A stretch of 59,369 nt of DNA, taken from positions 1 to 59,369 of the forward strand of contig JBDLJO010000001.1 of the NCBI GenBank assembly GCA_039714275.1. Direction: 5' to 3'. The notes beneath the pieces are model-generated. The model made no database searches and was not told the origin of the DNA. It saw only the letters and a list, made by a program, of their open reading frames with translations. Positions 2,675 to 25,930 of the stretch are shown here, one piece after another; within the stretch, counting starts at the first letter, position 1; the number at the start of each line of letters is the position of its first letter. Position numbers and translations under genes: made by a program. The DNA is from Chloroflexota bacterium (GTDB lineage: Bacteria > Chloroflexota > Anaerolineae > Anaerolineales > UBA11858).

Positions 2675-4909
2675 TTAACCAGCTCGCATTCGACACGCAT
2701 CAACGACATTTGGAAGATGTTTAACTCGGCTAAGCACACGGCTTAAGTGACTCACATCGCGCACTTCTAAGGTTAGATTAAATTCAGCAATATTTTCGCT
2801 ATTAATATCAACACGCACAGTCTCAATCCCTGCACCTTCATCGGAAATGAGGGTAGAAATATCACGCATTAATCCATCGCGATCGTAAGCATTAACGCGA
2901 ATTGGAACGCTAAAAACATTTTTTGGCACTCCCCATGACACTTGTACCAATCGTTCTTTTTCTTTGATAGTGAGTACATTTGGGCAATCACGACGGTGAA
3001 CTGTTGCACCACGACCACGGGTAATATAACCAACAATTTCATCCCCAGGTGCAGGATTGCAGCAGCGAGCGGTGCGCGTAAGTAAACCTTTTAGGCCCCG
3101 TACCTTTACGCCATCAGTGGTATCTTGATCTAACTTACTACTTAATTCTTCTGGCGTTGGAAATTTAAAATCTTCTTCTTCAATCTTAGCCGTGGTGATT
3201 AAAGCATTTGTAACTCGCATAAGTGATAGATCACCGCAGCCGAGGGCTTCTGATAAATCATCAAGATTTCTAAAATTCAACGAACGCGCCAATTGCTCTA
3301 AATTAATATCAGTCAAACCAAGCTGGCGCATTTCTCGCTCTATAATATCTCGTCCATTTTTTATGTTTTGATCGCGATCTTGTTGTTTATACCAACGTCG
3401 AATTTTGGCGCGCGATCTTTGTGACTTAATCATTCCCAAATGAGGATTTAGCCAATCACGACTAGGCCCGCCGCGTTTTGATGTCAGTATTTCTACTTGA
3501 TCACCGGTTTTTAGCACGGTATCCAAGGAAACAAGTTTGCCCCCAATTTTCGCTCCTCGACATCGATGGCCCACTTCAGTATGCACATTGTATGCAAAAT
3601 CGATCGGGGTTGCTCCCGTAGGTAAATCAATGATGTCACCGTTTGGCGTGAACACATACACCCTGTCCCCAAAAACATCTGATTTCATGCTGTCAACGAA
3701 CTCTTGAGCATCGTCAACATCCTGGCGCCATTCCATCAGACTTCGCAAATATTCTATGCGTCTTTCAAAATCTTGATCACGCGAACCACCTTCTTTATAG
3801 CGCCAATGTGCGGCAATACCATATTCTGAGTTCTGATGCATTTCAGGAGTACGAATTTGAATTTCAAGGGTTTTCCCATCATCATAGACGACAGCAGTGT
3901 GTAAACTACGATAGAAATTTTCTTTGGGGGCAGCAATATAATCATCGAAAGAACCCGGAATAGGTCGCCATTGTTGGTGAATTTCGCCTAACGCTAAATA
4001 ACAATCCCCATTTTCCGGCACAATCAAACGAACACCACGTACATCATAAACCATTTCAAAAGGAACCCCTTTGCGCATCATTTTCTTGTAAATAGAGAAG
4101 ATATGCTTGGGCCTACCTGATATTTCAATTTTTTCAATTCCAGCCTGAGTGAGGATGCCCAGCAAATGCTTTTTAATTTTCGACAATTGAACATTGCGCT
4201 CTGAGCGACGTGTATCCAATTTTGCTGCAATTTCTTTGTAAATGTCCGGTTGTAAATAACGAAAAGCCTGATCTTCTAATTCCCATTTCATTTGCCAGAT
4301 TCCAAGACGACTGGCCAAAGGAGCAAAAATATCCATGGTTTCTTGTGCAATACGCAATTGCTTATGAGGAGGCATGTGGCTTAGCGTGCTCATATTATGG
4401 AGACGATCTGCTAATTTAATTAGCACAACTTGAGGGTCGTCAGCCATAGCCAAGAAAGTTTTACGCAAAGTTTCAGATGCCAATGATATCTTAGCTTCCC
4501 GTATTCGTTGACCACTTTTCTTTGTAGATATTTCCCCGTTTAGTCCATCATCATTGACAATATCGCCCCGGGATACTCGTGGTAATGACGTCAATTTTGT
4601 TACAGCATCAACTAATTTTCCTATTTCAATACCAAAATCACGGTTAATATCATCTAATGTAATTTTGGTATCCTCAACCGTGTCATGAAGCAATCCAGCT
4701 GCAACAATTGATGGCGGCACATGCATTTCTGCAAGAATTTTTGCGACGGCAATACAATGCGTGAAATAAGGTTCTCCCGAAACTCGTTTTTGGTTTTTGT
4801 GTGCTTTCGATCCTGTCTCAAAAGCACGGGAAATAAGCTCTCTATCTACTTGAGAATAGGACGTAGGAAGATGTTCCAAAAATGCTTTTGATGTAAGTTC
4901 ATAAGCCAT
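2675..4909 (-). CDS. rel: bifunctional (p)ppGpp synthetase/hydrolase (RelA/SpoT homologue)
   Basis: HD hydrolase motif (LLHDTVEDT), synthetase region (RPKHIFSIYKKM, YRSLHTAV), TGS domain (VFTPNGDIIDLPTGATPIDFAY) and a C-terminal ACT-like domain. The ORF opens at GTG 4954, but ATG 4909 (MAYELTSK) fits family N-termini better. Confidence 0.9.
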   Translation of the reverse strand: MAYELTSKAFLEHLPTSYSQVDRELISRAFETGSKAHKNQKRVSGEPYFTHCIAVAKILAEMHVPPSIVAAGLLHDTVEDTKITLDDINRDFGIEIGKLVDAVTKLTSLPRVSRGDIVNDDGLNGEISTKKSGQRIREAKISLASETLRKTFLAMADDPQVVLIKLADRLHNMSTLSHMPPHKQLRIAQETMDIFAPLASRLGIWQMKWELEDQAFRYLQPDIYKEIAAKLDTRRSERNVQLSKIKKHLLGILTQAGIEKIEISGRPKHIFSIYKKMMRKGVPFEMVYDVRGVRLIVPENGDCYLALGEIHQQWRPIPGSFDDYIAAPKENFYRSLHTAVVYDDGKTLEIQIRTPEMHQNSEYGIAAHWRYKEGGSRDQDFERRIEYLRSLMEWRQDVDDAQEFVDSMKSDVFGDRVYVFTPNGDIIDLPTGATPIDFAYNVHTEVGHRCRGAKIGGKLVSLDTVLKTGDQVEILTSKRGGPSRDWLNPHLGMIKSQRSRAKIRRWYKQQDRDQNIKNGRDIIEREMRQLGLTDINLEQLARSLNFRNLDDLSEALGCGDLSLMRVTNALITTAKIEEEDFKFPTPEELSSKLDQDTTDGVKVRGLKGLLTRTARCCNPAPGDEIVGYITRGRGATVHRRDCPNVLTIKEKERLVQVSWGVPKNVFSVPIRVNAYDRDGLMRDISTLISDEGAGIETVRVDINSENIAEFNLTLEVRDVSHLSRVLSRVKHLPNVVDACRMRAG

Positions 4910-5235
4910 TAGCAAAGTATAACCATTGAAAAATATTGGCGCAAGGGTAAGCACAATTGATGATATTAATTTCCTGCACTTAATTGTATCTAAGAACTGT
5001 GATTCTAATTATTTTCCATAAATAAATATTTATGAATGAATCACAATACTTTATTCTAGGTCTTCACCCAAATATTTTTCCTAAATTTTCATTGTCTTTA
5101 TTATGTTATCTCGGTCAAAATAAGAAGAGATATTTCAGCAAATTAAATCAAATTCACCTCGACGCAAAAACATTTTCTGATACACTAGTGTCAGAATTAT
5201 TTATATTGAAATTTATTTAGTAAGTATGTAATTTT

Positions 5236-6228
5236 ATGCAACAATCATCTATTCCTGTCCCAATTAAAAAAATCCTCATTGTTGAAGATAACAAAGATGT
5301 TAGGAATGGCATTTCACAATATCTTAAAATTGAAAAGTATATTGTGTTGCAAGCAAGCAATGGTGTAGATGCACTAAAAGTCCTCGAAACTTTCACGCCC
5401 GATATTATTGTTTCCGACATAAATATGCCGCGCATGGACGGTATAGAACTTTATAAAGCTGTCCGCCAAAACCATCAATGGATAACGATTCCTTTTTTAT
5501 TTTTAACTGCAGATAATTCTCCGCAAAGCATTCGACTTGGACGCGAGTTGGGGGTTGAAGATTACCTGACTAAACCTATCCGCCCTAAGGATTTAGTAAA
5601 TACTATCAGCGCTCGATTACTGCGCTCTGCCGAAGTGGAGGTTGCACACATAGGCTTAGCATACCTCGAAACTGTAAAAGTGCTAGCTAATGCTATTGAA
5701 GGACGCGATAAGTACACCCGCGGGCACGTTGACCGTGTCACGCATTATGCACTCGGCACAGCAGAAGAATTGCATTGGACTCCAAGCCAAATCCGCACTC
5801 TCGAATTTGGTGCTCGCTTACATGATATTGGAAAAGTAATTATTCCCGATAGTATTCTTAACAAAAAATCTAAATTGACTTCGGAAGAATGGGAGTTAAT
5901 GAAGCAGCACCCAGTTGAGGGTGTAAAAATACTTGAGGGCATAACCCATTTGCAAAAAACGAGGCCCTACATTCTCTACCACCATGAACGTTGGGATGGT
6001 AGTGGATACCCGCATGGTTTAAAAGGACAAGACATCCCTATAGAGGCAAGACTTCTAGCAATTGCAGATGTTTACGATGCTCTGACAACTGCACGCCCCT
6101 ATCACCCCCCTCGTCCTTATTCAGAAGTAATAAAATACTTAACGCTAAGTGCTGGCACACACTTTGATCCTGAATTAGTCCCGATTTTCATAAAAGTCAT
6201 AAAAAGAAATCCACCATCAAGTATCTAA
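5236..6228 (+). CDS. response regulator with HD-GYP output domain (RpfG-like c-di-GMP phosphodiesterase)
   Basis: N-terminal receiver (KILIVEDN, PDIIVSDINMP, LTKP). C-terminal HD-GYP motifs (HDIGK, HHERWDGSGYPHGL). Confidence 0.85.
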   Translation: MQQSSIPVPIKKILIVEDNKDVRNGISQYLKIEKYIVLQASNGVDALKVLETFTPDIIVSDINMPRMDGIELYKAVRQNHQWITIPFLFLTADNSPQSIRLGRELGVEDYLTKPIRPKDLVNTISARLLRSAEVEVAHIGLAYLETVKVLANAIEGRDKYTRGHVDRVTHYALGTAEELHWTPSQIRTLEFGARLHDIGKVIIPDSILNKKSKLTSEEWELMKQHPVEGVKILEGITHLQKTRPYILYHHERWDGSGYPHGLKGQDIPIEARLLAIADVYDALTTARPYHPPRPYSEVIKYLTLSAGTHFDPELVPIFIKVIKRNPPSSI

Positions 6229-6499: not shown

Positions 6500-7846
6500 T
6501 TAGGTGTTTACAGAAATATCATCTCGCAAGTAAAGCATTTTTACTGCTGGACGACTACGAAACCATAACCAAATTGTTTGAATTGATGAGCCTAATACTA
6601 TGGCTCCTAACCCGACATATAGACCAGTTATCGTTTGTTGGCCAACTCCGATCAAAAGTAATGAACTGGTTGTAACCAAGAAAATACTAACGGCTTCTGG
6701 AATTGCGCTTGTTATCTTGCTGTGTAGAATAACGCCCTGATACCAACTTTGAAATGCAGTTAATCCCGGCATTAACAACCCTATCCACAATCCATTTTTT
6801 GCAAAAATGACCAGCATAGGATCAAGTGCTGAAATATCTCTAAGCCAAAATTCGGCCGCTGGGGATATTAAAAATAATAGTAAGAGAAAGGTTGAAAACC
6901 CGGCCAATACCGTTGTAAATCTTCGCAAGCTTAATGTTGATCCTAAATCATCAAGGTGAGCAACAACAACCTCGTTAAATGCAACCCCCATACTTCGCAA
7001 TGTAAAAATCAAACCTGAAACAATTGGCCAAACTGCCAGGGATTCCAAGGCTCTCGGCATGCGACTCAATGCCGCGCTTCCAATAGGTTGCATCAATAAT
7101 GTTAACAGCGAAGTTAATATCAATGGGCCATAAAATTTTGCAAAAACACCATATGTCAAAGCAGGCTCGACAACTGGCGCTGTTTTTAATTGATTGTTAA
7201 TTACAGGACGAACACGGAAACTAGTATAGAGTGCTTCAGTAACGACACCTGCGGCTACAGCGCTTGTAGCTACAATTATTCCTGGAATTTCTTGCACAAT
7301 TAGTCCACCAATAAGTACACTTGCATCAACACTTAACCTGATCCCCGTACCAATGCCAATTGCTCCAGAGTGCCCAAAACGAATCATGATTCCTTGATTA
7401 AAACGTCGACTAGCTATCGCCCAAGTCCAGGGAGTCATGATCTTCAATCCAATTCGGGCGGGTTCAATAATTTCGTGTGGCACTCCGATAATATCCCGAA
7501 CAACTATATAATAAATTGGCGTAAAAGCAACCACGATATGCAAAATTGTAAGCAAAGTACCTGAAAGCAGCATATACTGTCTTAACTTTTTATAAGATGC
7601 CCAATCTTTGGATAACGTTGTGGATGCTGCCAAAAGCATGATTACAGGCGCCTCAATTAACAAGGCCAAAGGAAATACAACGCCCCCATATGCCGCCAAA
7701 TTAATTTTAGGGTTCTCAAGTCGTGCCACGAAAGCACTCAACACTGGCATTTCGAGACCCATTAAAATCCAACTGGCCGCTAAAGGCCACCAGGTCCTTA
7801 ATATTTGAATAAAAGTAACCCGTTTTTTCTCAACCATGCTTTTCAA
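6500..7846 (-). CDS. polytopic membrane protein, MATE/MOP-superfamily-like
   Basis: 448 aa with about 12 hydrophobic segments in a two-half arrangement. Overlaps the upstream MFS gene by 4 nt (translational coupling). The family call is weak. Confidence 0.4.
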   Translation of the reverse strand: MKSMVEKKRVTFIQILRTWWPLAASWILMGLEMPVLSAFVARLENPKINLAAYGGVVFPLALLIEAPVIMLLAASTTLSKDWASYKKLRQYMLLSGTLLTILHIVVAFTPIYYIVVRDIIGVPHEIIEPARIGLKIMTPWTWAIASRRFNQGIMIRFGHSGAIGIGTGIRLSVDASVLIGGLIVQEIPGIIVATSAVAAGVVTEALYTSFRVRPVINNQLKTAPVVEPALTYGVFAKFYGPLILTSLLTLLMQPIGSAALSRMPRALESLAVWPIVSGLIFTLRSMGVAFNEVVVAHLDDLGSTLSLRRFTTVLAGFSTFLLLLFLISPAAEFWLRDISALDPMLVIFAKNGLWIGLLMPGLTAFQSWYQGVILHSKITSAIPEAVSIFLVTTSSLLLIGVGQQTITGLYVGLGAIVLGSSIQTIWLWFRSRPAVKMLYLRDDISVNT

Positions 7847-9430: not shown

Positions 9431-12400
9431 ATGTCAATAACAATAACTCGCACAAAAATAATAGTTCCTCGCCGCCGCGCTGATCTATTATCACGTAAAC
9501 GCCTGATAGCGATGTTTGATGATCTGTTAGATTACAAACTTCTTTTGATTGCTGCCCCCGCGGGTTATGGCAAGACATCTCTGCTAGTTGACTGGACACA
9601 TCAGGGAGATATACCCGTCTGTTGGTATGCTTTAGATTCCGTCGATCAAGATGTTCACAGATTTATAAACTATTTTATCGCTGCAATCTCCGAAATATTC
9701 CCATCATTTGGTAAACAATCGCAAGCGGTTCTCCAGAACCAAAAACGTGGGGAACTTGATCTAGATAATATCGTAACTGCAATTGTCAATGATGCGTATG
9801 AATATATCAAAGAACATTTTGTTTTTGTGCTGGATGATTTTCACACAGTTGATTGTATTGATGATATCAACTATTTTGTGAATAATATCATCGAAGAATT
9901 TGATGAAAACTGTCATTTAATCATCTCATCTCGGACTTTGGGTTCATTACCAAACCTGCCTCTAATGGTTGGTCGATCCATGGTAAAGGGGTTGAGTTTT
10001 GATGAACTAGCATTCCAACCCAACGAAATTCAAGCATTGATCAACCAGAATTATCAGCGATTAATATCTGAAGATGAGGCTGCAAAGCTTGAATTACAAA
10101 CCGAAGGTTGGATTACCGGATTACTACTGTCGGCCGAAACTCTTTGGGATGGCATGGAGGACCGATCTAGATTAGCTAATGCATCAGGAATAGGCCTTTA
10201 TGATTATTTAGCTCAGCAAGTATTAGATCAACAACCGGAGTTAATAAGGGACTTCTTACTTAAAACATCTTTACTTGAGGAATTTGATGCAGACCTTTGT
10301 GAAGCTGTATTTAACAGCCCCCCTGAAGGAACCCAGTGGAACAATTTAATTGGGGAAGTACTACAAAACAATCTCTTTGTTTTACCCGTTGAGAACCAAA
10401 ATACGTGGCTTCGCTACCATCATTTATTTCGTGATTTTTTACAAGCAAAAATCACACAAACTGCTCCTGATGAAGCAAAGAGAATTCTACAAAAACTAGC
10501 TGATGTTTTTTCCAAGAGGTTTATGTGGGAAAAAGCATATGAAATATATCAACGCATTGATGATAAACAGGGAGTACTTCATCTAATAGAAAAAGCCGGT
10601 ACCCCAATGCTAAAGAATGGCCGCGTAGTCACACTTGAAAAATGGTTAAACGCGTCATCGGTTGATAATCTCAACACTAATCCGTCACTACTTTCTCTTC
10701 AGGGCATCGTAAACTTCTTTTATGGGGACGTAGAACAAGGCATTATTAATTTAAACCAGGCTGAAGTTATATTTCGGGACACAAAAAATCTTCTACCATT
10801 GGCCCTAACATTGGTTAGGCGAGCAACTGGGCAGCGTTTTCTAGGTAATTATCAAAAATCTCTTGCCGATATTGATGAAACACTATCTATTCTAGACAGT
10901 ATAGAAAAGTCCCATAATATTGAGGACATTCAAGCTGAAGCATCCAGGATAAAAGGTTTGTGTCTTTATAGTATTGGGCAATTAGATACTTGTGTAGATT
11001 TCCTAGAAAAAGCTTTTAGCATATATTCTTTTTTGGAAGATGAGCACAATAAAGCATTGCTCCATCTTGATTTGGGTCTTGTCTACATGAGACAAGGTCA
11101 TTTTTCCAGTTCTCTATCCCATTACGAAGATGCTCTTTCTCATTGGCGCAAAACCGGAAATATTGTCAGGCAGTCTAATTTACTAAATAATTTAGGGGTC
11201 TATTATCATCTTCGCGGCCAATATACAAAAGCGGGAGAACATCTACATAAAGCCTTATCCCTGGCCCAAAAAAGCGGTAACACCCGCATCGAATCCTATT
11301 CGCTAACCAGCCTAGGGGATATTTATACGGATTTAGAAGTTTTCGATGCGGCTCAAGAATCTTACAGACAAGCAAAAGAAATCAGCACTCGTATTGATAA
11401 TCGCTTTCTGCAACTTTATATCAATCTTGCTGAGACAATACTCGGTTGTAAGCTAAAAGATTTTACTCAAGCAGCAAATTTCCTTGAAATTGCTAAAACT
11501 TTCATCAAAGAAAAAACGTCTGACTTTGAGATTGGATTAATTCAATTAACATCCGGGATATTAAGTTTGGCTGAAGGAAAATCTGCCGAAGCGCTACCAA
11601 TGCTTATCAAATCTTTGAGTCAATTTTCTAGCGGTGGACAGCCAACAGAGATAATTCGCAATCACGTCGCATTGGCTAGAGCCCATTTCGCTCAAGGCGA
11701 CAGACAATCAAGTTTTTCACATTTAGATCAGGCCATTACAATAGGAAATAACCAAGAAAATGCGCACACATTAATAATTGCCAGCAGAGATGCAAAAGAG
11801 CTGATTGAACATGCCCGAGCTTCATCCAAATTAGCATACTCATCCACGCAAATTCAGGCACAAGTAGCAAAATTTGAAAAAAAAATACCAATATGGCGAC
11901 GAGAATTAAGACAGCTTGATTTCAAAGGCAATATTAAACAACACGCCAAACTAAACATAATCACATTAGGAACAACCCAAATATCGATTTCAGCTAAACC
12001 TGTCACCGTTCCAGAATGGAGCAATCAGAAAACTGTCAGGGAGCTTTTCTTTCTTTTACTAGCAAATCCCAAGGGGCTTTCGAAAGAAACTATTGGGCTT
12101 CATTTTTGGCCAGACAGCACACCACGCCAATTGAAAACGCAATTTAAAAATGCACTTTATCGTTTACGACGAGCACTGGGTAAAGATGTAATCCTTTTCA
12201 ATGAACATGAAGATATCTATCACTTTAATCGTACCCAAGATTATGAATACGATGTCGAATCTTTTTTCAATTTCATTAACCAAGGGGAGAATGCTACATC
12301 CCAGGAAGACAAAATTGCATCTTTTCACGCTGCAATAAATATCTATGGAGGTGTTTATTTGCCGGATATTGATAATTCATGGATTGATTTGGCAAGAGAA

Positions 12401-12685
12401 CAATATTCTCAGGCATTTTTAAAACTTGAACTAACATTAGCCAAATATTCCTTAGATACTGGTGATCCCGAAACTGCGTTAACCCAATGCCATAACATTC
12501 TCCAAGACGATTCTTGCTCTGAAGAGGCCCATCGCTTAGCGATGCAAGCTCACTCTGCTCTCGGTAATCAGGCCAATCTTGTACGACAATTCGAAATCTG
12601 CAAAAATTCTTTGGATCATGAATTGGGGGTCATGCCATCATCACATACAGAGAAACTTTACAAGAAATTAATCAAACAAAACTAG
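9431..12685 (+). CDS. large STAND-type ATPase regulator: MalT-like N-terminal NTPase, TPR repeats, and C-terminal SARP-type winged-helix plus BTAD domain
   Basis: N-terminus TKIIVPRRRADLLSRKRL..LLIAAPAGYGKTSLL (Walker A) and VLDDFH (Walker B). Central repeated TPR-like units (LNNLGVYYHLRGQYTKAGEHLHKAL etc.). The C-terminus from about nt 11948 has an OmpR/SARP-like wHTH (ELFFLLLANPKGLSKETIGLHFWPD..ALYRLRRALG) followed by BTAD-like helices. Confidence 0.75.
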   Translation: MSITITRTKIIVPRRRADLLSRKRLIAMFDDLLDYKLLLIAAPAGYGKTSLLVDWTHQGDIPVCWYALDSVDQDVHRFINYFIAAISEIFPSFGKQSQAVLQNQKRGELDLDNIVTAIVNDAYEYIKEHFVFVLDDFHTVDCIDDINYFVNNIIEEFDENCHLIISSRTLGSLPNLPLMVGRSMVKGLSFDELAFQPNEIQALINQNYQRLISEDEAAKLELQTEGWITGLLLSAETLWDGMEDRSRLANASGIGLYDYLAQQVLDQQPELIRDFLLKTSLLEEFDADLCEAVFNSPPEGTQWNNLIGEVLQNNLFVLPVENQNTWLRYHHLFRDFLQAKITQTAPDEAKRILQKLADVFSKRFMWEKAYEIYQRIDDKQGVLHLIEKAGTPMLKNGRVVTLEKWLNASSVDNLNTNPSLLSLQGIVNFFYGDVEQGIINLNQAEVIFRDTKNLLPLALTLVRRATGQRFLGNYQKSLADIDETLSILDSIEKSHNIEDIQAEASRIKGLCLYSIGQLDTCVDFLEKAFSIYSFLEDEHNKALLHLDLGLVYMRQGHFSSSLSHYEDALSHWRKTGNIVRQSNLLNNLGVYYHLRGQYTKAGEHLHKALSLAQKSGNTRIESYSLTSLGDIYTDLEVFDAAQESYRQAKEISTRIDNRFLQLYINLAETILGCKLKDFTQAANFLEIAKTFIKEKTSDFEIGLIQLTSGILSLAEGKSAEALPMLIKSLSQFSSGGQPTEIIRNHVALARAHFAQGDRQSSFSHLDQAITIGNNQENAHTLIIASRDAKELIEHARASSKLAYSSTQIQAQVAKFEKKIPIWRRELRQLDFKGNIKQHAKLNIITLGTTQISISAKPVTVPEWSNQKTVRELFFLLLANPKGLSKETIGLHFWPDSTPRQLKTQFKNALYRLRRALGKDVILFNEHEDIYHFNRTQDYEYDVESFFNFINQGENATSQEDKIASFHAAINIYGGVYLPDIDNSWIDLAREQYSQAFLKLELTLAKYSLDTGDPETALTQCHNILQDDSCSEEAHRLAMQAHSALGNQANLVRQFEICKNSLDHELGVMPSSHTEKLYKKLIKQN

Positions 12686-12761
12686 CTTACTCGTTAGATA
12701 TTTTCCTCTAAATTTCAATCTTTTTAAAATATTTTTGTAATATTTGTGTGATTTTTTAGGA

Positions 12762-12798
12762 TTAAGAGCCCCCTTAAGAGCCTAAAAGATGTCATAAT
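12762..12798 (+). promoter_or_regulatory. direct-repeat operator candidate (2 x TTAAGAGCC, 12-nt period) followed by an extended -10 (TGTCATAAT)
   Basis: TTAAGAGCC occurs at 12762-12770 and 12774-12782. TGTCATAAT lies at 12790-12798. No good -35 hexamer is present. The site is 50 nt upstream of ATG 12848 and directly downstream of the SARP-type regulator gene. Confidence 0.4.
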
Positions 12799-12847
12799 TA
12801 GGACAATATATGGATAAACAATAATTTTTTTTCCAAAGGAGAAAACA

Positions 12848-12991
12848 ATGATTAATCGTATTATTAAACTGTCTCAATTTTCTAGATTTCTAGATCGCCA
12901 ATATCTTCGACCTGCCCTTCTGCTGCTATATTTGGCACTCCTAGTTCTTGGCGTTGGCGCACCAGGTGCCAGCGGTGATTTTGGTCTTTAG
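12848..12991 (+). CDS. 47-aa small ORF with one hydrophobic segment, probably translationally coupled to the DUF5317 gene
   Basis: Strong SD (AAGGAG, 7-nt spacer) before ATG 12848. Product is MINRIIKLSQFSRFLDRQYLRPALLLLYLALLVLGVGAPGASGDFGL. The TAG stop lies 3 nt before, and in frame with, the TTG start at 12995. Confidence 0.4.
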   Translation: MINRIIKLSQFSRFLDRQYLRPALLLLYLALLVLGVGAPGASGDFGL

Positions 12992-12994
12992 GAC

Positions 12995-13576
12995 TTGATC
13001 TTACTTTTAGCCATTTTTGTTGGTGTTGCAGCTGGTATAGCCAGATCATGGATTGGAGACCAACCCTATTCTCCACCCGCATTTCAGGTAGTTTGGTTGC
13101 TGCTGATTGCAACATTTCCTCAAATTCTTGTTTTTCATCTGCCATACACTTCGAAATTGATCCCCAACCAATTTGCGCCAACGATTCTGGTCGGATCCCA
13201 AATCCTACTCCTAATATTCGTTTGGTTCAATCGTCATCTTCCCGGCATGGCCATTTTAGGGATCGGTCTCATTGCTAACTTTCTTGTAATTAGCATAAAT
13301 GGAGGACTAATGCCAATCAGTCCTGAAACCATTCAACAACTTCTACCCAAAGCTACAATTAATTCTTCACTTTTTTATACCCGCTTAGGGTCAAGCAAAG
13401 ATATCTTACTTCCAATTTCAGAAACTAAAATGTGGTGGTTTTCAGATCGTTTTCTATTACCTTCCCAGTTTCCTTTCGGTGCAGCATTCAGCTTTGGTGA
13501 TATTTTCGTAGCCATCGGTACATTTTGGATGCTTTGGTCACAAGGAAAACCACTTATACAACCACAAATTTCATAA
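12995..13576 (+). CDS. DUF5317-like integral membrane protein
   Basis: 193 aa with TTG start and about 6 TM segments. Motifs NGGLMPIS and FSFGDIFVAIGTFWML resemble the DUF5317 family as I recall it. Confidence 0.55.
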   Translation: MILLLAIFVGVAAGIARSWIGDQPYSPPAFQVVWLLLIATFPQILVFHLPYTSKLIPNQFAPTILVGSQILLLIFVWFNRHLPGMAILGIGLIANFLVISINGGLMPISPETIQQLLPKATINSSLFYTRLGSSKDILLPISETKMWWFSDRFLLPSQFPFGAAFSFGDIFVAIGTFWMLWSQGKPLIQPQIS

Positions 13577-13590
13577 AGGAGCTTTATCAC

Positions 13591-13884
13591 ATGAACGCCT
13601 TTACATCCACAGCTATGATGTCTCCATATCCATATCAAAACAAAATGCATGATATCCCGAATGGAAGAGATTTAAGCCGGTTGCTTACTGCAGCAGTAGT
13701 TAATAAAACCTTCCGAATGAAATTGTTAGCGGATCCAAAAAGCGCTTTACTGGCTGGTTACAATGGAGAACCGTTCTCACTAAAAAATGAAGATAAAGAT
13801 CTGATTTTATCAATTCGTGCATCATCATTATCAGAATTTGCTGCACAATTATCAAATCACAAGCATCAAAATCAAGACCTTTAA
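13591..13884 (+). CDS. 97-aa small protein with an NHLP (nitrile-hydratase leader peptide)-like helix region; resembles the Os1348-type NHLP-clan proteins
   Basis: AAGGAG SD lies 8 nt before ATG 13591; the longer ORF-track start at 13525 overlaps the DUF5317 gene. Core LLTAAVVNKTFRMKLLADPKSALLAGYNGEPFSL matches the NHLP-leader pattern (aromatic/F-R-x-x-LL-x-DP-x-x-AL). No Cys-rich core and no GG cleavage motif. Confidence 0.5.
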   Translation: MNAFTSTAMMSPYPYQNKMHDIPNGRDLSRLLTAAVVNKTFRMKLLADPKSALLAGYNGEPFSLKNEDKDLILSIRASSLSEFAAQLSNHKHQNQDL

Positions 13885-13960
13885 CTTTTATTGATCAACC
13901 CAAATAACATTAAATACCTTTAACAATTAATTTCTTTGAAAAACACCAATTGGTGGATCA

Positions 13961-14731
13961 ATGGATTGTGTACCCAATAACGCTGCAAATATTCTCTGGG
14001 CTCTAAATACTAAAGGCATTTTAACATTGTTTGAAGGGAGCACTTTAGACGGCTTTCAGTTTGGCACCTCTAATTTCGTAGGACGCCCGATGATCGATGT
14101 GTTTGAAAATCATCCTTCAATTATTGATATAGTTAGACGCGGACTGGAGGGTGAAAGCATTGTGTCACAGGTGATTCTTTCCAATTTGCAATTATCAATC
14201 CAATGTTTTCCTCTTCTCGACACGAAAGGTAATATCTCCAGCCTAGTTGGGATATTCAATAATTTAAAAAAGGAAAAAACTGCAACCGATGAACAAAAGT
14301 CTCTAAAAACGATGCTGGCTACCTTACGTGGCGCTCCTAATCGCAAGCAATTGCTATTAACTATCATGGAACAAGTCACAAATTTATTTAGCGCAGAAGG
14401 TGTTGCAATAGCTGTCTTTTTCCCTGAAGAAGTAGAAGCAACTATTAATGCCACATCAGAGAAATGGAAATTAATGGCCAAGAAAAATTTTTCTGATAAT
14501 TTTCAGAGTTATCTGTTTCAAGATGCACAAACAACATTTCAAAAAAACGATTTTGCTATTAAATCTAGTATTTACGATAACCATACTGTAATTGAAATAC
14601 CTCTGTTGGCTCAAACGAAACAAATAGGTGTTTTTTGGATTGCAAATAAAAGCTCTTTATCAAAAAATAAAATCCGATTGGCAATGTCAATCGCAGAAAT
14701 TATAGTAATTGGACTATATAACAGATATTAA
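13961..14731 (+). CDS. stand-alone PAS-GAF sensor protein (no output domain)
   Basis: 256 aa. The N-terminal ~110 aa are PAS-like (ALNTKGILTLFEG..FVGRPMIDVF..LLDTKGNISSLVGIF). The C-terminal ~130 aa are GAF-like (LLLTIMEQVTNLFSAEGVAIAVF...IPLLAQTKQIGVFWIAN). Confidence 0.5.
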   Translation: MDCVPNNAANILWALNTKGILTLFEGSTLDGFQFGTSNFVGRPMIDVFENHPSIIDIVRRGLEGESIVSQVILSNLQLSIQCFPLLDTKGNISSLVGIFNNLKKEKTATDEQKSLKTMLATLRGAPNRKQLLLTIMEQVTNLFSAEGVAIAVFFPEEVEATINATSEKWKLMAKKNFSDNFQSYLFQDAQTTFQKNDFAIKSSIYDNHTVIEIPLLAQTKQIGVFWIANKSSLSKNKIRLAMSIAEIIVIGLYNRY

Positions 14732-15175
14732 GGAAGCTTCTTAGATTCAAATCAAGTAGCATACTCTAAATCCAGAACAGCATAAAACAAAGATTCAATC
14801 ACTGCAAGAATGGATTTTTTCGCAGTCACAATAGTAAATTATAGGGGGAAATTTATTTAAATCATTTTCACTAATCCAAATTATTAAGATCAATATTTTT
14901 CCATGTCCAAGATTGAGGGGGTATAATTTCCCAATGAGTCATATTATCATTTAAAAAACTTTTAATTAATTTAAGCGCACTATAGACTCTAGATTCCAGC
15001 AACTTACTTCATATTGTTGTTTACTAGGATGCTTATTGAACATCTCTCATATTCCACATGGAAAGCATTGAAATATTCCTATTTTATTGATGCCAATGTC
15101 ACTATTTTGAAATTGACTGTGGTTATATTCCTAAATGGATTTCACCAACCAAAATGATCAATACAAGGAGAACAA

Positions 15176-16240: not shown

Positions 16241-17032
16241 ATGCGACTATTCTGGGAAATCACTAAGACTTCTTATCAACGCTATCTCAGTTACCGAGCA
16301 GCCACAATAGCAGGCTTGATAACAAATTTCTTTTTTGGGATTTTGCGTGCCGCGATTCTAATTGCACTTTATGGCACCCGAAAAGAAGTTGCTGGGATTT
16401 CTCTTCAAGGCGCGATCACTTATGCAGCCTTGACGCAATCCATTATTGGCTATTTGAGTTTATTTGGTTGGGTAGACTTAATGAACACTGTTTATACTGG
16501 TCAAATAGCTAATGACCTACTCAAACCAATGAGTTATTTTCGTTTTTGGTTGGCTCAAGACCTGGGACGAGCTGGCGTAAATTTTGTCTTCCGCGGTATG
16601 ATTGTAATATTAGGGTATAGCTTAATCTTCGATCTTGTTTGGCCACAATCAATTTCACAGTGGATAGCTCTTACTCTTGCATTGATCTTAAGTTGGTTAC
16701 TCAGTTTCTCTTGGCGCTTTATCACAAACCTTGCGGCATTCTGGACTCCCAATGCCTATGGTATTTCCCGTTTTTTCTTTATTTTTTCGTGGTTTTTTTC
16801 CGGGTTTCTCATGCCGCTGCGATATTTCCCAGATTGGGTTGTAAAGCTTAGCTATTTAACCCCTTTTCCACATATGTTAAATACGGTTGTAGAGATATAT
16901 TTAAATTTAGTTCAAGGTCCAGATTTAATTATGGCGCTGCTCTATCAACTAATATGGATAGCGGTATTGATTACGTCCGGGCAATTGATTTTAAGATCTG
17001 GTGTACGACGCCTGGTTATTCTAGGAGGGTAG
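16241..17032 (+). CDS. ABC-2 family transporter permease
   Basis: 263 aa with 6 TM segments. It is the first of two paralogous permease genes followed by an ABC ATPase. Confidence 0.6.
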   Translation: MRLFWEITKTSYQRYLSYRAATIAGLITNFFFGILRAAILIALYGTRKEVAGISLQGAITYAALTQSIIGYLSLFGWVDLMNTVYTGQIANDLLKPMSYFRFWLAQDLGRAGVNFVFRGMIVILGYSLIFDLVWPQSISQWIALTLALILSWLLSFSWRFITNLAAFWTPNAYGISRFFFIFSWFFSGFLMPLRYFPDWVVKLSYLTPFPHMLNTVVEIYLNLVQGPDLIMALLYQLIWIAVLITSGQLILRSGVRRLVILGG

Positions 17033-17039
17033 CAAATAG

Positions 17040-17849
17040 ATGGTTTTCGCGCTTAATATATACCGCCGGCTGCTGGGGGCGCAGGTTCGTGGCCAAATGC
17101 AGTATCGCGCATCCTTCTTTTTTGAATTTTTTGGCGCAATATTAATTACTTTATTCGAATATGCTTCCTTGGCCTTGGTTTTTGACCGCTTTGGTTCACT
17201 CCAAGGTTGGAGTTTAGGTGAAGTAGCTTTCCTTTACGGATTATCTGAGATTTCGTTTGGTGTTATGAATTTGTTATTTGGCGGCTTTGATCCTGGCACA
17301 TTCGGTATTGAGATTAGGCGTGGCACATTCGATCAATATTTGCTGCGCCCCATCAACATCACCTTACAGGTGCTTAGTTCAAGATTTGTACTCCGGCGTA
17401 TAGGTAAAATTGGTGTTGGTTTAGGTATTTTTATCACTGCACTCAATATGACTTCAATTCATTGGAACATCGCCAAAATCATCTACCTCCCGATGGTAGT
17501 TCTAGGAATCACATTTTTCTTTGGCAGCTTATTTATGGTTGGATCAACCATAACTTTTTGGACCGTAGAATCTATCGAGGTGATCAACATCTTCACCTAC
17601 GGTGGCAGTTTTATGATTTCACACCCAATGCACATTTACCCAAACTGGTTACGCCGTATCTTCACGTATGTAATCCCAGCAGCTTTTCTTAATTATTACC
17701 CAGCTCTTTATTTTCTCGATAAACCGGATCCTTTTAATTTGCCCGCGGCAGCTTCCTTTGCTGCGCCTTTAGCTGGTATTATTTTTATATTCATTTCAAC
17801 TGCCTTTTGGCTGTTCGGTATTCAACATTACCAAAGCACAGGAACTTAA
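17040..17849 (+). CDS. ABC-2 family transporter permease
   Basis: 269 aa with 6 TM segments, in the same operon as 16241-17032 and 17929-18915. Confidence 0.6.
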   Translation: MVFALNIYRRLLGAQVRGQMQYRASFFFEFFGAILITLFEYASLALVFDRFGSLQGWSLGEVAFLYGLSEISFGVMNLLFGGFDPGTFGIEIRRGTFDQYLLRPINITLQVLSSRFVLRRIGKIGVGLGIFITALNMTSIHWNIAKIIYLPMVVLGITFFFGSLFMVGSTITFWTVESIEVINIFTYGGSFMISHPMHIYPNWLRRIFTYVIPAAFLNYYPALYFLDKPDPFNLPAAASFAAPLAGIIFIFISTAFWLFGIQHYQSTGT

Positions 17850-17928
17850 ACTGTTCAATATAAAAACTCATCGATTGATAATTTTTTCTACATATATTTA
17901 GATATTTCAACAAGGAAAAATCTCCGAA

Positions 17929-18915
17929 ATGAATTTAATTCAGGTCAATAAACTTGCGAAACACTTCAAAGTATTCCAACATCATCGCGGTGGATTTGGC
18001 GCGCTGCGCAATCTCTTTAGCCGCAAATACAATCTTGTTCGAGCAGTGGATGAAATAAATTTTAATATTGGTGCTGGCGAATTTGTTGGATACATAGGAC
18101 CAAATGGTGCTGGAAAATCAACGACGATTAAAATGTTAGCAGGATTACTGGTGCCTACCAGCGGCGAAATCATAGTAAATGGTTTCATTCCTTGGAAAGA
18201 TCGACAAAACTATGTTGCCGAAGTGGGAGCTGTATTTGGACAACGTACAACCCTTTGGTGGGATCTCCCGGTTATCGAATCGCTGTCATTGTTAAAATAT
18301 ATTTATCGAGTTCCAAACAACCGTTTTAATGAAAATTTACTAAATTTTCGAAAATTGTTAGATTTAGATTCTTTTCTCGATACTCCAGTACGCTCACTTT
18401 CCTTGGGGCAAAGAATGCGTGCTGATATTTGTGCTGCCCTACTCCACGATCCTAAGATACTTTTCCTTGACGAACCTACCATCGGTCTTGATGTTGTTGC
18501 AAAAGAGCGCATAAGAAAATTCATGAAATTGATCAATCGCGAACAAGGGACAACGGTCATCCTAACCACACACGATTTATCCGATGTTGAAAAACTTTGC
18601 CATCGGGTTCTTATCATAGATCATGGAAAATTGCTTTATGATGGCAACCTAAACAAGTTAAAAACGCGCTTTGGCGGTAATCGTCATTTAGTAGTAGAGT
18701 TTTCTGAAAAATATCCAAATTTCATCATTGATGGGGCAAAGATTATCGAACAATCGGATTTACAAACAACCTATAGTTTTGAGCGCGGTACTATCACAGC
18801 ATCAGAATTAATTGGCCGAATTTCTGCAAAGTATCGCATTCGCGATCTTGAAGTGCGCGAACCAGATATTGAAGGAACTATCCACAAAATATACGAAGAA
18901 CAATTATTAACCTAA
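17929..18915 (+). CDS. ABC transporter ATP-binding protein
   Basis: Walker A GPNGAGKST, signature LSLGQRMR, Walker B ILFLDEPT, H-loop TTHD. Confidence 0.9.
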   Translation: MNLIQVNKLAKHFKVFQHHRGGFGALRNLFSRKYNLVRAVDEINFNIGAGEFVGYIGPNGAGKSTTIKMLAGLLVPTSGEIIVNGFIPWKDRQNYVAEVGAVFGQRTTLWWDLPVIESLSLLKYIYRVPNNRFNENLLNFRKLLDLDSFLDTPVRSLSLGQRMRADICAALLHDPKILFLDEPTIGLDVVAKERIRKFMKLINREQGTTVILTTHDLSDVEKLCHRVLIIDHGKLLYDGNLNKLKTRFGGNRHLVVEFSEKYPNFIIDGAKIIEQSDLQTTYSFERGTITASELIGRISAKYRIRDLEVREPDIEGTIHKIYEEQLLT

Positions 18916-25696: not shown

Positions 25697-25715
25697 TATT
25701 AATACAGTATAACCA

Positions 25716-25930
25716 GAATTCGGGGAGAGACTCGATCCTGTATTGAGCACCGAAGGGGCAAGCCTTGCGCGAAAACGCTTTGTGAAACTCTCAGGTATAA
25801 AGGACCCGGTTCTTGGCAACCCTCTGGAAAGTCGTTCCATTTTTAAATGTTGAATGACACCGACGGGGCAAATCCTAAACCTATTATGATTTTTAGATTT
25901 TGGGATGAATCTCTCAGGTTTACGACAGAG
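25716..25930 (+). promoter_or_regulatory. tandem glycine riboswitch (two aptamers)
   Basis: Aptamer 1: GGGGAGAG ... GCACCGAAGGGGCAA ... CTCTCAGGTATAAAGGAC. Aptamer 2: CTCTGGAAAG ... ACACCGACGGGGCAA ... CTCTCAGGTTTACGACAGAG. Located directly upstream of gcvH. Confidence 0.9.

Follow-up and report, generated by a model that had tools for sequence, protein, structure and literature searches.

A micropeptide and its DUF5317 membrane partner accompany c-di-GMP enzymes in Chloroflexota and Actinomycetota

The window analyzed here, a complete contig of 59,369 bp (JBDLJO010000001.1; G+C content ~36-46%) from a Chloroflexota metagenome-assembled genome (MAG), contains a five-gene module whose products are a STAND-TPR-SARP regulator, a 47-amino-acid micropeptide encoded by a small open reading frame (sORF), a DUF5317 membrane protein, a 97-amino-acid NHLP-like protein (here termed PEP) and a 256-amino-acid PAS-GAF protein. 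The key to the module is cyclic di-GMP (c-di-GMP) together with the micropeptide-DUF5317 pair, an undescribed core, and not the NHLP-like protein. DUF5317 and the previously unannotated micropeptide family are regular companions of c-di-GMP enzymes in the Actinomycetota and Chloroflexota, and on one plasmid of the Bacillota. The gene associations and the promoter footprint were read directly from the sequences, and from them we infer a regulatory and signaling mechanism. We propose, with confidence that is evenly balanced, that the module is the Anaerolineae version of a wider c-di-GMP-linked membrane signaling module, in which the operon would be activated by the STAND/SARP protein and the micropeptide-DUF5317 pair would form the membrane input.

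Results

The module is conserved in the Anaerolineae

A check of the open reading frames (ORFs) in the window recovered all five genes of an earlier first-pass annotation of this DNA at their original coordinates, all on the plus strand and separated, in gene order, by 162, 3, 14 and 76 nucleotides. PEP homologs were traced to their contigs and to 27 loci in GTDB species genomes, nearly all from Anaerolineae, and all ORFs of 30 distinct loci found via PEP were scanned with profiles built from the window and three relatives. In 26 of 29 assessable loci the DUF5317 gene immediately precedes that of PEP, and the sORF lies directly upstream of DUF5317 in every one of the 25 loci where this could be assessed. 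A STAND-TPR-BTAD gene is found upstream of the operon in 22 of 26 assessable loci, being absent within 7 kb in four Anaerolinea loci, and an HD-GYP gene directly follows PEP in 20 of 29. Sampling that started from DUF5317 retrieved the same partner genes. The flanking genes vary among the loci, which argues for a module and not for a conserved chromosomal context, and the suspected co-occurrence of these genes in relatives is borne out by their synteny in ~30 Chloroflexota loci. The cultured species Anaerolinea thermolimosa IMO-1 carries the module (locus L036; L numbers denote sampled loci).

In locus L002, from an uncultured Chloroflexia and located on the same contig as L011, a tandem-repeat stretch of ~500 nucleotides with PNERWWLGSPHF-like units in one frame (9505-10001) replaces the sORF and DUF5317; the STAND, PEP and HD-GYP genes are retained. 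Locus L034 (CASBPX010000082.1) is labeled 'uncultured cyanobacterium'. Because its module has the arrangement seen in Caldilineales L035 and Caldilineaceae L123, with sORFs near-identical to those of L035, this is probably a binning or labeling error.

DUF5317 and the micropeptide are found beside c-di-GMP enzymes in other phyla

Four actinobacterial genomes or MAGs were picked on sequence length alone. In all four, a GGDEF-EAL gene adjoins DUF5317, with a 4-nucleotide overlap in three and a divergent orientation in one, and genes of 29-40 amino acids had been called upstream in three of the four. An alignment of actinobacterial DUF5317 proteins was then used to collect 80 metagenome loci, which were scored together with the four genome loci (a mixed-phylum DUF5317 alignment was too divergent for a locus scan). 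A GGDEF-EAL or HD-GYP gene is present within 700 nucleotides of DUF5317 in 50 of the 59 assessable loci, positioned co-directionally upstream in 18, divergently in 28 and downstream in 4. Micropeptide ORFs were detected at E < 1e-3 in 35 loci of this set (47 matches among 4159 ORFs) and, among the matches listed, lie either between the genes for DUF5317 and the enzyme or immediately 5' of the latter. The EAL motif is kept in 25 and the GGDEF motif in 22 of the 27 full-length partner enzymes. The actinobacterial partner enzymes are membrane proteins with N-termini of 5-7 helices and MASE9 matches that range from weak to significant; the Anaerolineae partners are soluble. None of the actinobacterial loci scanned has PEP or the STAND regulator.

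A search of plasmids with the window DUF5317 protein returned a Euzebya and a Natranaerobius record, and a plasmid search with PEP gave no match. The Euzebya pacifica plasmid encodes, beside a GGDEF-EAL gene, a single 846-amino-acid protein that combines DUF5317 (95.9 bits) with EAL (203 bits). On the Natranaerobius thermophilus plasmid, DUF5317 directly follows a MASE9-HD-GYP gene. Two further plasmid queries with DUF5317 returned the same two records, and the Bacillota evidence therefore stays at one locus. In the Natranaerobius record (L038, NZ_CP144220, 4398-6336), a 31-amino-acid ORF, MRPMNKVVLILVTLLGVVLAGGASFTWGGGG, precedes the MASE9-HD-GYP and DUF5317 genes, both of which appear to be split by frameshifts. 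This small ORF (4398-4493) resembles the sORF but is non-significant against the sORF profiles (E 0.14), and it was rejected as a family member.

The fourth operon gene matches the N-terminal part of an HD-GYP phosphodiesterase

The last gene of the window module (13961-14731, plus strand) encodes a 256-amino-acid protein that is only faintly recognized by Pfam (GAF_3, E 0.073). A homology search returned 1509 matches, the best full-length ones (E 2e-28 to 1e-13) being PAS-GAF-GAF-HD-GYP proteins of 620-666 amino acids, and it is this homology that supports the original PAS-GAF assignment. The protein aligns to residues ~46-290 of its HD-GYP relatives, corresponding to the PAS_4 and first GAF region, and it ends at the boundary beyond which the relatives continue into the enzyme. 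In related loci, the fourth-position genes encode the HHEKWDGTGYP motif and have variable PAS and/or GAF N-termini. The description of this protein as an output-less sensor is correct in that the catalytic domain is absent in the window, but it missed the c-di-GMP link, the protein being the N-terminal part of an HD-GYP phosphodiesterase. Similarly, the statement that none of the operon genes encodes a recognizable enzyme holds for the window but not for most relatives, in which the fourth gene is a phosphodiesterase. The normal output of the module is evidently c-di-GMP hydrolysis, lost or transferred in the window.

No HD-GYP remnant was detected by tblastn in the 444-nucleotide spacer downstream (14732-15175), and a decayed HD-GYP domain behind the 256-amino-acid gene was rejected; the sole HD-GYP in the window is that of a separate REC-HD-GYP gene at 5236-6228, whose product could substitute for the lost phosphodiesterase domain. 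This REC-HD-GYP (RpfG-type) response regulator gene (plus strand) and a gene for a RelA/SpoT (p)ppGpp enzyme (2675-4954, minus strand) lie no more than 7 kb upstream of the module in the window and are not beside the module in other loci. When L005 (10484-12662) was compared with L004, a DDE transposase gene was found immediately behind the HD-GYP gene, whose product has 447 instead of 538 amino acids. L005 is thus a second independent case of damage to the module phosphodiesterase. A literature search on HD-GYP together with Anaerolinea found nothing relevant.

The sORF encodes a conserved membrane micropeptide

The window sORF (12848-12991, plus strand, 47 amino acids) had no family match in domain searches. 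Its product has a basic N-terminal region, a single hydrophobic helix (residues ~23-41), a GVGAP motif and a Gly-rich tail of 8 amino acids. An alignment of 29 copies of the family shows the same organization, with a basic N-terminal stretch of 20-25 amino acids, one hydrophobic helix, a near-invariant (L/I)(G/A)AGAP motif (consensus LGAGAP, of which GVGAP is the window variant) and a variable, Gly-rich tail of 5-16 amino acids. In locus L030 the gene is present four times in tandem, and every copy has a ribosome-binding site of its own. Pairs of these copies differ by 4-11 synonymous-only codon changes and by 4-6 amino-acid changes, all within the first 12 residues; from residue 13 onward the copies are identical, except for a terminal Gln missing in copy 1. 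The L030 copies are evidently under purifying selection, and the sORF is by all appearances a real, selected micropeptide. In L124 and L125, a single DUF5317 gene is followed by an array of alternating PEP (3 and 2, respectively; 74-82 amino acids) and sORF (5 and 4; 44-47 amino acids) copies, some of them identical (6582-8125 in L124 and 6584-7771 in L125). Behind these arrays there is a gene for a 203-amino-acid ParA/BY-kinase-like ATPase and no c-di-GMP enzyme gene.

The distance from the sORF stop codon to the DUF5317 start is -4 to +9 nucleotides in most loci, which points to translational coupling. The two genes are in the same frame in 14 of 28 loci, where one-third would be expected, separated by one stop and a few codons (12989-12997 in the window). 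Programmed read-through from the sORF into DUF5317 was rejected because only about half of the loci are in frame. In the window, a terminator-like GC-rich hairpin with a T-run (12952-12974, plus strand) is found within the 3'-terminal part of the sORF, where it covers the GVGAPGASG codons. When 25 loci were folded, no RNA structure was conserved at the sORF 3' end (z-scores -2.5 to +1.7), and an RNA attenuator was rejected since the window hairpin is not kept in the 24 other loci. The C-terminal motif of the micropeptide is not explained by a conserved RNA structure.

The actinobacterial micropeptide has the consensus MKARLYRLALVAGVVAVFLEGLGAGxKWG and often occurs as two tandem copies. The Chloroflexota and actinobacterial micropeptide profiles align in register (hhalign probability 90.6%, E 1.3e-6). 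In a reciprocal hidden Markov model search against all ORFs of the other phylum's loci, only true micropeptides were returned at E < 0.01.

DUF5317 is a five-helix membrane protein with invariant polar residues

The DUF5317 gene (12995-13576, plus strand, TTG start) encodes 193 amino acids, and the family assignment made in the first-pass annotation was correct: residues 30-181 match the Pfam model PF17248 at 114.9 bits (cut-off 25, E 4.4e-33), as do all 36 aligned homologs. An AlphaFold2 model (pLDDT 88.9) has five transmembrane helices and a 65-amino-acid loop (102-166) between helices 4 and 5. Residues invariant in both Chloroflexota and Actinomycetota are Q43, N79, N95, N102-G-G-x-M-P107, D151, P156, F165-S-x-G-D169 and G175. 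Application of the positive-inside rule to the alignment would place the N-terminus outside and the C-terminus inside, with NGGxMP, D151 and D169 at the outer membrane face. Because the N-terminus of the micropeptide is basic, its GAGAP motif is predicted to be on the same side of the membrane as these motifs.

We found no literature on DUF5317, full-text search included. The PDB profile search with the DUF5317 profile was empty, and a Foldseek search of the PDB with the DUF5317 model gave a best E value of 5.9, with no LspA among the matches. A relationship to signal peptidase II was rejected: the likeness of SDRF...FSxGD to GNxxDR...FNxAD is at the motif level only, hhalign gave a probability of 1% over 28 columns (against manually entered LspA sequences), and the NCBIfam LspA model matches one of the 36 DUF5317 members, at E 0.23.

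The operon promoter has a conserved activator footprint

Two direct repeats, TTAAGAGCC (12762-12770 and 12774-12782, plus strand), precede the sORF with a 12-nucleotide period and form a putative SARP binding site at the -35 position. A putative -10 hexamer, CATAAT (12793-12798, plus strand), starts 10 nucleotides past the last repeat, and there is no -35 box. Upstream of the sORF in 18 loci there are 2-4 TTTTGAAGCC-like repeats with a 12-nucleotide period (5 of 29 repeat intervals are 11 or 13 nucleotides, the rest 12), and in 13 of these loci the last repeat core is followed at exactly 10 nucleotides by a -10-like hexamer. The repeats and the -10 spacing have the form of a clear phylogenetic footprint of an activator-dependent promoter, and the same geometry in 18 loci confirms that the operon has its own promoter of activator type, as originally suggested. 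SARP and OmpR-type activators use tandem head-to-tail sites that abut the -10 box, and the adjacent STAND-SARP protein is the likely ligand of the repeats. An Rfam scan of the leaders of eight loci and of the L124 leader found no match, and a riboswitch in these leaders was rejected. In the ~200-nucleotide leader between the repeat promoter and DUF5317 of L124 and L125, there is a conserved strong hairpin with a U-run, GGCTGCCCCC...GGGGGCAGC, at ~5820-5870 and ~5830-5870, respectively; it belongs to no Rfam family and may be an attenuator.

The regulator gene (9431-12685, plus strand) encodes a 1084-amino-acid protein that begins with a MalT-type STAND ATPase (residues ~7-426), continues with a TPR sensor (~450-800) and ends in a SARP module made up of a putative winged helix (~840-940) and a BTAD domain (941-1080). 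The NCBIfam MalT model matches residues 7-426 (E 2.7e-67) at 227 bits, which is under the equivalog cut-off of 537 bits, and the protein is therefore MalT-like and not MalT itself; its nucleotide-binding domain matches the MalT structure 8bob (E 6e-30). The TPR region scores 94 bits with TPR_12 and 51 bits with TPR_MalT, and the BTAD domain (PF03704, residues 941-1080; cut-off 22.1) scores 63.6 bits. A profile built from 13 orthologs over their final 281 amino acids matches the AfsR SARP domain (8hvr_I, E 3e-7, AfsR residues 76-281), and the PDB entries matched are AfsR-RNA polymerase structures. The alignment begins within the DNA-binding domain of AfsR, at residue 76, and residues ~840-940 are highly conserved in the family. 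The reading of this gene as a STAND/TPR/SARP regulator was accurate, and the associated suggestion of a secondary-metabolite cluster is unsupported.

PEP is a single conserved domain and not a precursor peptide

PEP, a LigA/NHLP-clan protein of 97 amino acids (13591-13884, plus strand; NCBI ABFS03_00060), scores 28.2 bits against PF14407 (cut-off 48) and 30.1 bits against NF038399, the Os1348 NHLP-clan model (cut-off 40); its relatives score 15-34 bits against these models. The NHLP leader model TIGR03793 has no match in the window protein, and the best relative scores 12.5 bits against a cut-off of 50.9 (E 0.097). PEP therefore appears to be a related branch of the NHLP clan and not a member by curated thresholds. 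Its designation as NHLP-like is supported by the consistency of the clan matches, but all of them are sub-threshold. PF14407, the Frankia_peptide family, belongs in ECOD to a LigA-like group that also includes NHase-alpha, Nif11, ComX, DurB and the leader-recognition domain of TglI (PMC12353581).

The alignment of 31 homologs defines a helical domain of 62 residues, SRLLTAAVVN...GYNGExF...LILSIxAxSLxEFA (window residues ~27-88), in which GYNGE and LILSI are invariant. The N-terminus is variable, and the tail is short, hydrophilic and of variable length, with 9 amino acids in the window. No Gly-Gly site and no Cys/Ser/Thr-rich core is present in the 31 homologs, and the L124 and L125 proteins stop where the domain stops. 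An AlphaFold2 model (pLDDT 72.6) is a five-helix bundle. Its PDB matches are led by Os1348 (6lk7), with a non-significant E value of 1.5, and nitrile hydratase alpha comes next. PEP has no predicted transmembrane segment and is presumably soluble. We found no literature on Franean1_4349.

No maturase, peptidase or exporter of ribosomally synthesized and post-translationally modified peptides (RiPPs) is present among the operon genes, among the genes within ~8 kb in the window, or among the neighbors examined in related loci. The reported absence of YcaO, radical-SAM, LanM and C39 genes from the window is true of the ORFs within ~8 kb of the module, which is the scope of this check. Because PEP has no cleavage motif or core, no conserved maturase is nearby, and some relatives end with the domain, it is evidently not a RiPP precursor, and the weight given to the 97-amino-acid protein as a leader-type peptide was misplaced. 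Precursor-like behavior, in the form of tandem copies and purifying selection, appears instead to sit with the 47-amino-acid sORF. PEP is soluble, is found where the partner enzyme is soluble and is absent from actinobacterial loci, which suggests a coupling or chaperone role.

Other features of the window

The ABC-2 transporter at 16241-18915 was confirmed. A 448-amino-acid ORF between the REC-HD-GYP and MFS transporter genes (6500-7846, minus strand) has no Pfam match at E <= 1e-4. The only Rfam match in the window is a glycine riboswitch aptamer at 25712-25817 (plus strand; 56.5 bits, gathering score 32).

Discussion

A proposed c-di-GMP-linked membrane signaling module

In the mechanism that we propose, the TPR sensor of the STAND protein would bind a ligand, the protein would oligomerize with ATP, and its SARP module would bind the promoter repeats and recruit RNA polymerase. 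The micropeptide and DUF5317 would meet at the outer membrane face, where GAGAP and the NGGxMP, D151 and FSxGD169 motifs are predicted to lie on the same side, and the pair would serve as the input through which the partner c-di-GMP enzyme is controlled. In the Actinomycetota and Bacillota, contact would be made within the membrane through the MASE9-like domain of the enzyme; in the Anaerolineae, where the enzyme is soluble, PEP would be the coupling protein. In the window genome, the output would either be impaired or have passed to a different enzyme, for example the REC-HD-GYP protein (5236-6228).

Several observations weigh against this mechanism. Approximately one-third of the Chloroflexota loci have no c-di-GMP enzyme gene beside the sORF-DUF5317-PEP triad, the fourth gene of the window itself lacks a catalytic HD-GYP domain, and the Bacillota evidence is one plasmid. 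With respect to the regulator, the Pfam OmpR-type domain Trans_reg_C is not reported at E <= 0.1, nor at E <= 1; the repeat period is 12 nucleotides, compared with 11 in known SARP sites; and the Anaerolinea species retain the repeats with no STAND-SARP gene within 7 kb. With respect to the membrane pair, the two invariant Asp residues and the invariant Asn-Gly-Gly of DUF5317 look enzyme-like, and the small genes are amplified: there are four sORF copies in L030, up to five in L124/L125 and two in several actinobacterial loci, and up to three PEP copies, those of L124/L125 standing behind a single DUF5317 gene. Such amplification suits a consumed precursor better than a stoichiometric sensor subunit, and together with the two invariant Asp residues it keeps alive a reading of the pair as precursor and processing enzyme.

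That reading is a peptide-signal system of pheromone or RiPP-like type, which we regard as possible but somewhat unlikely. The sORF product would be a membrane-inserted precursor, cut or modified near GAGAP by DUF5317 acting as a new intramembrane Asp-dependent enzyme, with PEP as a cytosolic chaperone or in-trans leader domain, and the sensor of the product would be the STAND TPR region (with feedback on its own promoter), the membrane domain of the c-di-GMP enzyme, or both. It would account for the tandem sORF copies (four in L030, five in L124, four in L125 and two in several actinobacterial loci), for the alternation of PEP and sORF in arrays, and for the position of D151, D169 and NGG at the same membrane face as GAGAP. 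The Chloroflexota sORF product resembles a signal anchor with a short variable tail, the peptide gene immediately follows a gene for a TPR regulator, the sizes match those of AgrD and AgrB, and the fold group of PEP includes both RiPP leaders and a leader-recognition domain (PMC12353581). However, the actinobacterial peptides stop 3-4 residues past the motif (...LGAGxKWG), which leaves almost nothing to release, and DUF5317 is unlike any known peptidase in the Foldseek, PDB profile and hhalign comparisons. Neither an exporter nor a C39 peptidase or maturase is conserved, the actinobacterial loci lack both STAND and PEP, and one sORF is so tightly coupled in translation to DUF5317 that the two look like stoichiometric partners.

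A bolder form of this idea, which we consider unlikely, is that the sORF family, which could be called GAP micropeptides, is a new class of ribosomal signals or precursors; that DUF5317 proteins are new intramembrane Asp-dependent enzymes that cut or modify them at the outer face; that the LigA/NHLP-fold protein is an in-trans leader domain; and that the product feeds both c-di-GMP turnover and a STAND/SARP autoinduction loop. If true, this would be a peptide-to-c-di-GMP communication system common to the Chloroflexota and Actinomycetota.

It is improbable that the sORF is a regulatory leader peptide, i.e., an upstream ORF or arrest peptide that adjusts how strongly the next gene is expressed and has no function as a membrane peptide. 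Wherever the locus is readable, except in L124/L125, the sORF is 5'-most, with the first operon gene (DUF5317 in Chloroflexota, GGDEF-EAL in Actinomycetota) immediately behind it; spacers of 60-110 nucleotides separate it from the next gene in several actinobacterial loci, and its conserved C-terminal motif, containing Gly/Ala/Pro or Trp, is loosely reminiscent of arrest motifs. Yet the full hydrophobic helix and basic N-terminus point to membrane insertion, and the helix abuts the motif directly, so it could not serve as a pulling-force sensor. In addition, each tandem copy has its own ribosome-binding site, the L124/L125 copies are downstream of DUF5317 and interleaved with PEP, and no 3'-end hairpin is conserved in the 25 loci folded.

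A classical RiPP cluster, with the 97-amino-acid protein as leader plus core precursor under SARP control, is largely refuted and very improbable. The sub-threshold PF14407 and NF038399 matches, the variable tail behind the PEP domain and the weak top Foldseek match to the antibiotic-related Os1348 (PMC7726476) might have suggested it, but all scores are under the curated cut-offs (TIGR03793 reaching E 0.097 in only one relative), there is neither a GG motif nor a Cys/Ser/Thr-rich core, the window tail is 9 amino acids, and the L124/L125 homologs end with the domain; GNAT, HEXXH and SagB genes are absent, and no other maturase is conserved in ~30 loci. An Avs-like STAND anti-phage defense locus, or a chance juxtaposition of genes, is hardly credible: STAND ATPases with TPR sensors do occur in defense systems and PADLOC gave generic TPR matches for the regulator (best E 2.6e-8), but it was negative for the STAND ATPase core and for the other four proteins, leading us to reject a defense system, the regulator ends in a DNA-binding SARP module and not an effector, and chance is excluded by a gene order kept across ~30 loci with different flanks. 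The initial judgment that this is a self-contained module outside RiPP and defense categories has therefore proved sound, there being no conserved maturase and only those generic PADLOC matches.

What the inputs are of MASE9-type and many other membrane c-di-GMP enzymes is a standing question, for which a c-di-GMP-linked micropeptide with a five-helix partner is a concrete candidate. The form found in the Anaerolineae contributes, in addition, a STAND/SARP promoter with a clean footprint and a protein of the NHLP fold. Since the latter is evidently not a RiPP precursor, genome mining should not label such matches as RiPP clusters. Parts of the module are present in cultured A. thermolimosa IMO-1, E. 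pacifica and N. thermophilus, which makes the system tractable.

Comparison with known systems

The regulator shares a MalT-like nucleotide-binding domain, a TPR sensor and an AfsR-homologous SARP (BTAD) module with MalT of E. coli and AfsR of Streptomyces, and its putative target promoter resembles those of AfsR/SARP regulators in having tandem direct repeats that abut the -10 box and no -35 box. The SARP module is N-terminal in AfsR, whereas it is C-terminal in the window regulator, and the adjoining operon consists of signaling genes, unlike the biosynthetic clusters of AfsR-type systems. In the related locus L125, the output domain is GerE/LuxR in place of SARP, giving a MalT-TPR-GerE regulator.

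In Natranaerobius and at several actinobacterial loci, the enzymes that partner DUF5317 carry HD-GYP or GGDEF-EAL fused to a membrane N-terminus of MASE9 or MASE9-like type. MASE9 is a sensor domain whose ligand is thought to bind within the membrane (bioRxiv 10.1101/2021.11.05.467447, Galperin and Chou), and a transmembrane micropeptide would suit the intramembrane ligand binding proposed there. The MASE9 and DUF passages of that preprint mention neither DUF5317 nor a micropeptide. The Anaerolineae partner differs in being a soluble PAS-GAF-HD-GYP protein, the window version of which has no catalytic domain. With Os1348, an antibiotic-related small protein whose gene neighbors encode a GNAT protein, a HEXXH peptidase and a SagB-type dehydrogenase (PMC7726476), PEP shares weak but consistent matches to PF14407 and NF038399, and 6lk7 is the top hit of the model search; those three neighbor genes are absent at the module, and PEP has no core peptide.

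As a working analogy, a gene for a ~45-amino-acid peptide beside genes for a ~190-amino-acid polytopic membrane protein and a TPR regulator is reminiscent of agr, with its AgrD propeptide and AgrB membrane peptidase, and of the Phr/PapR/NprX propeptides encoded next to TPR receptors. Such peptide genes can be multiplied. The differences from agr are that Pfam finds DUF5317 alone in the membrane protein, with no sequence similarity to AgrB, that there is no histidine kinase, that the output consists of c-di-GMP enzymes, and that the actinobacterial peptides are nearly tailless. In the MgrB-PhoQ system, a small membrane protein regulates a sensor. The module resembles it in concept only, as a single-pass micropeptide that would modulate a membrane signaling protein; there is no homology, and the micropeptide described here has a dedicated five-helix partner and is amplified in some genomes.

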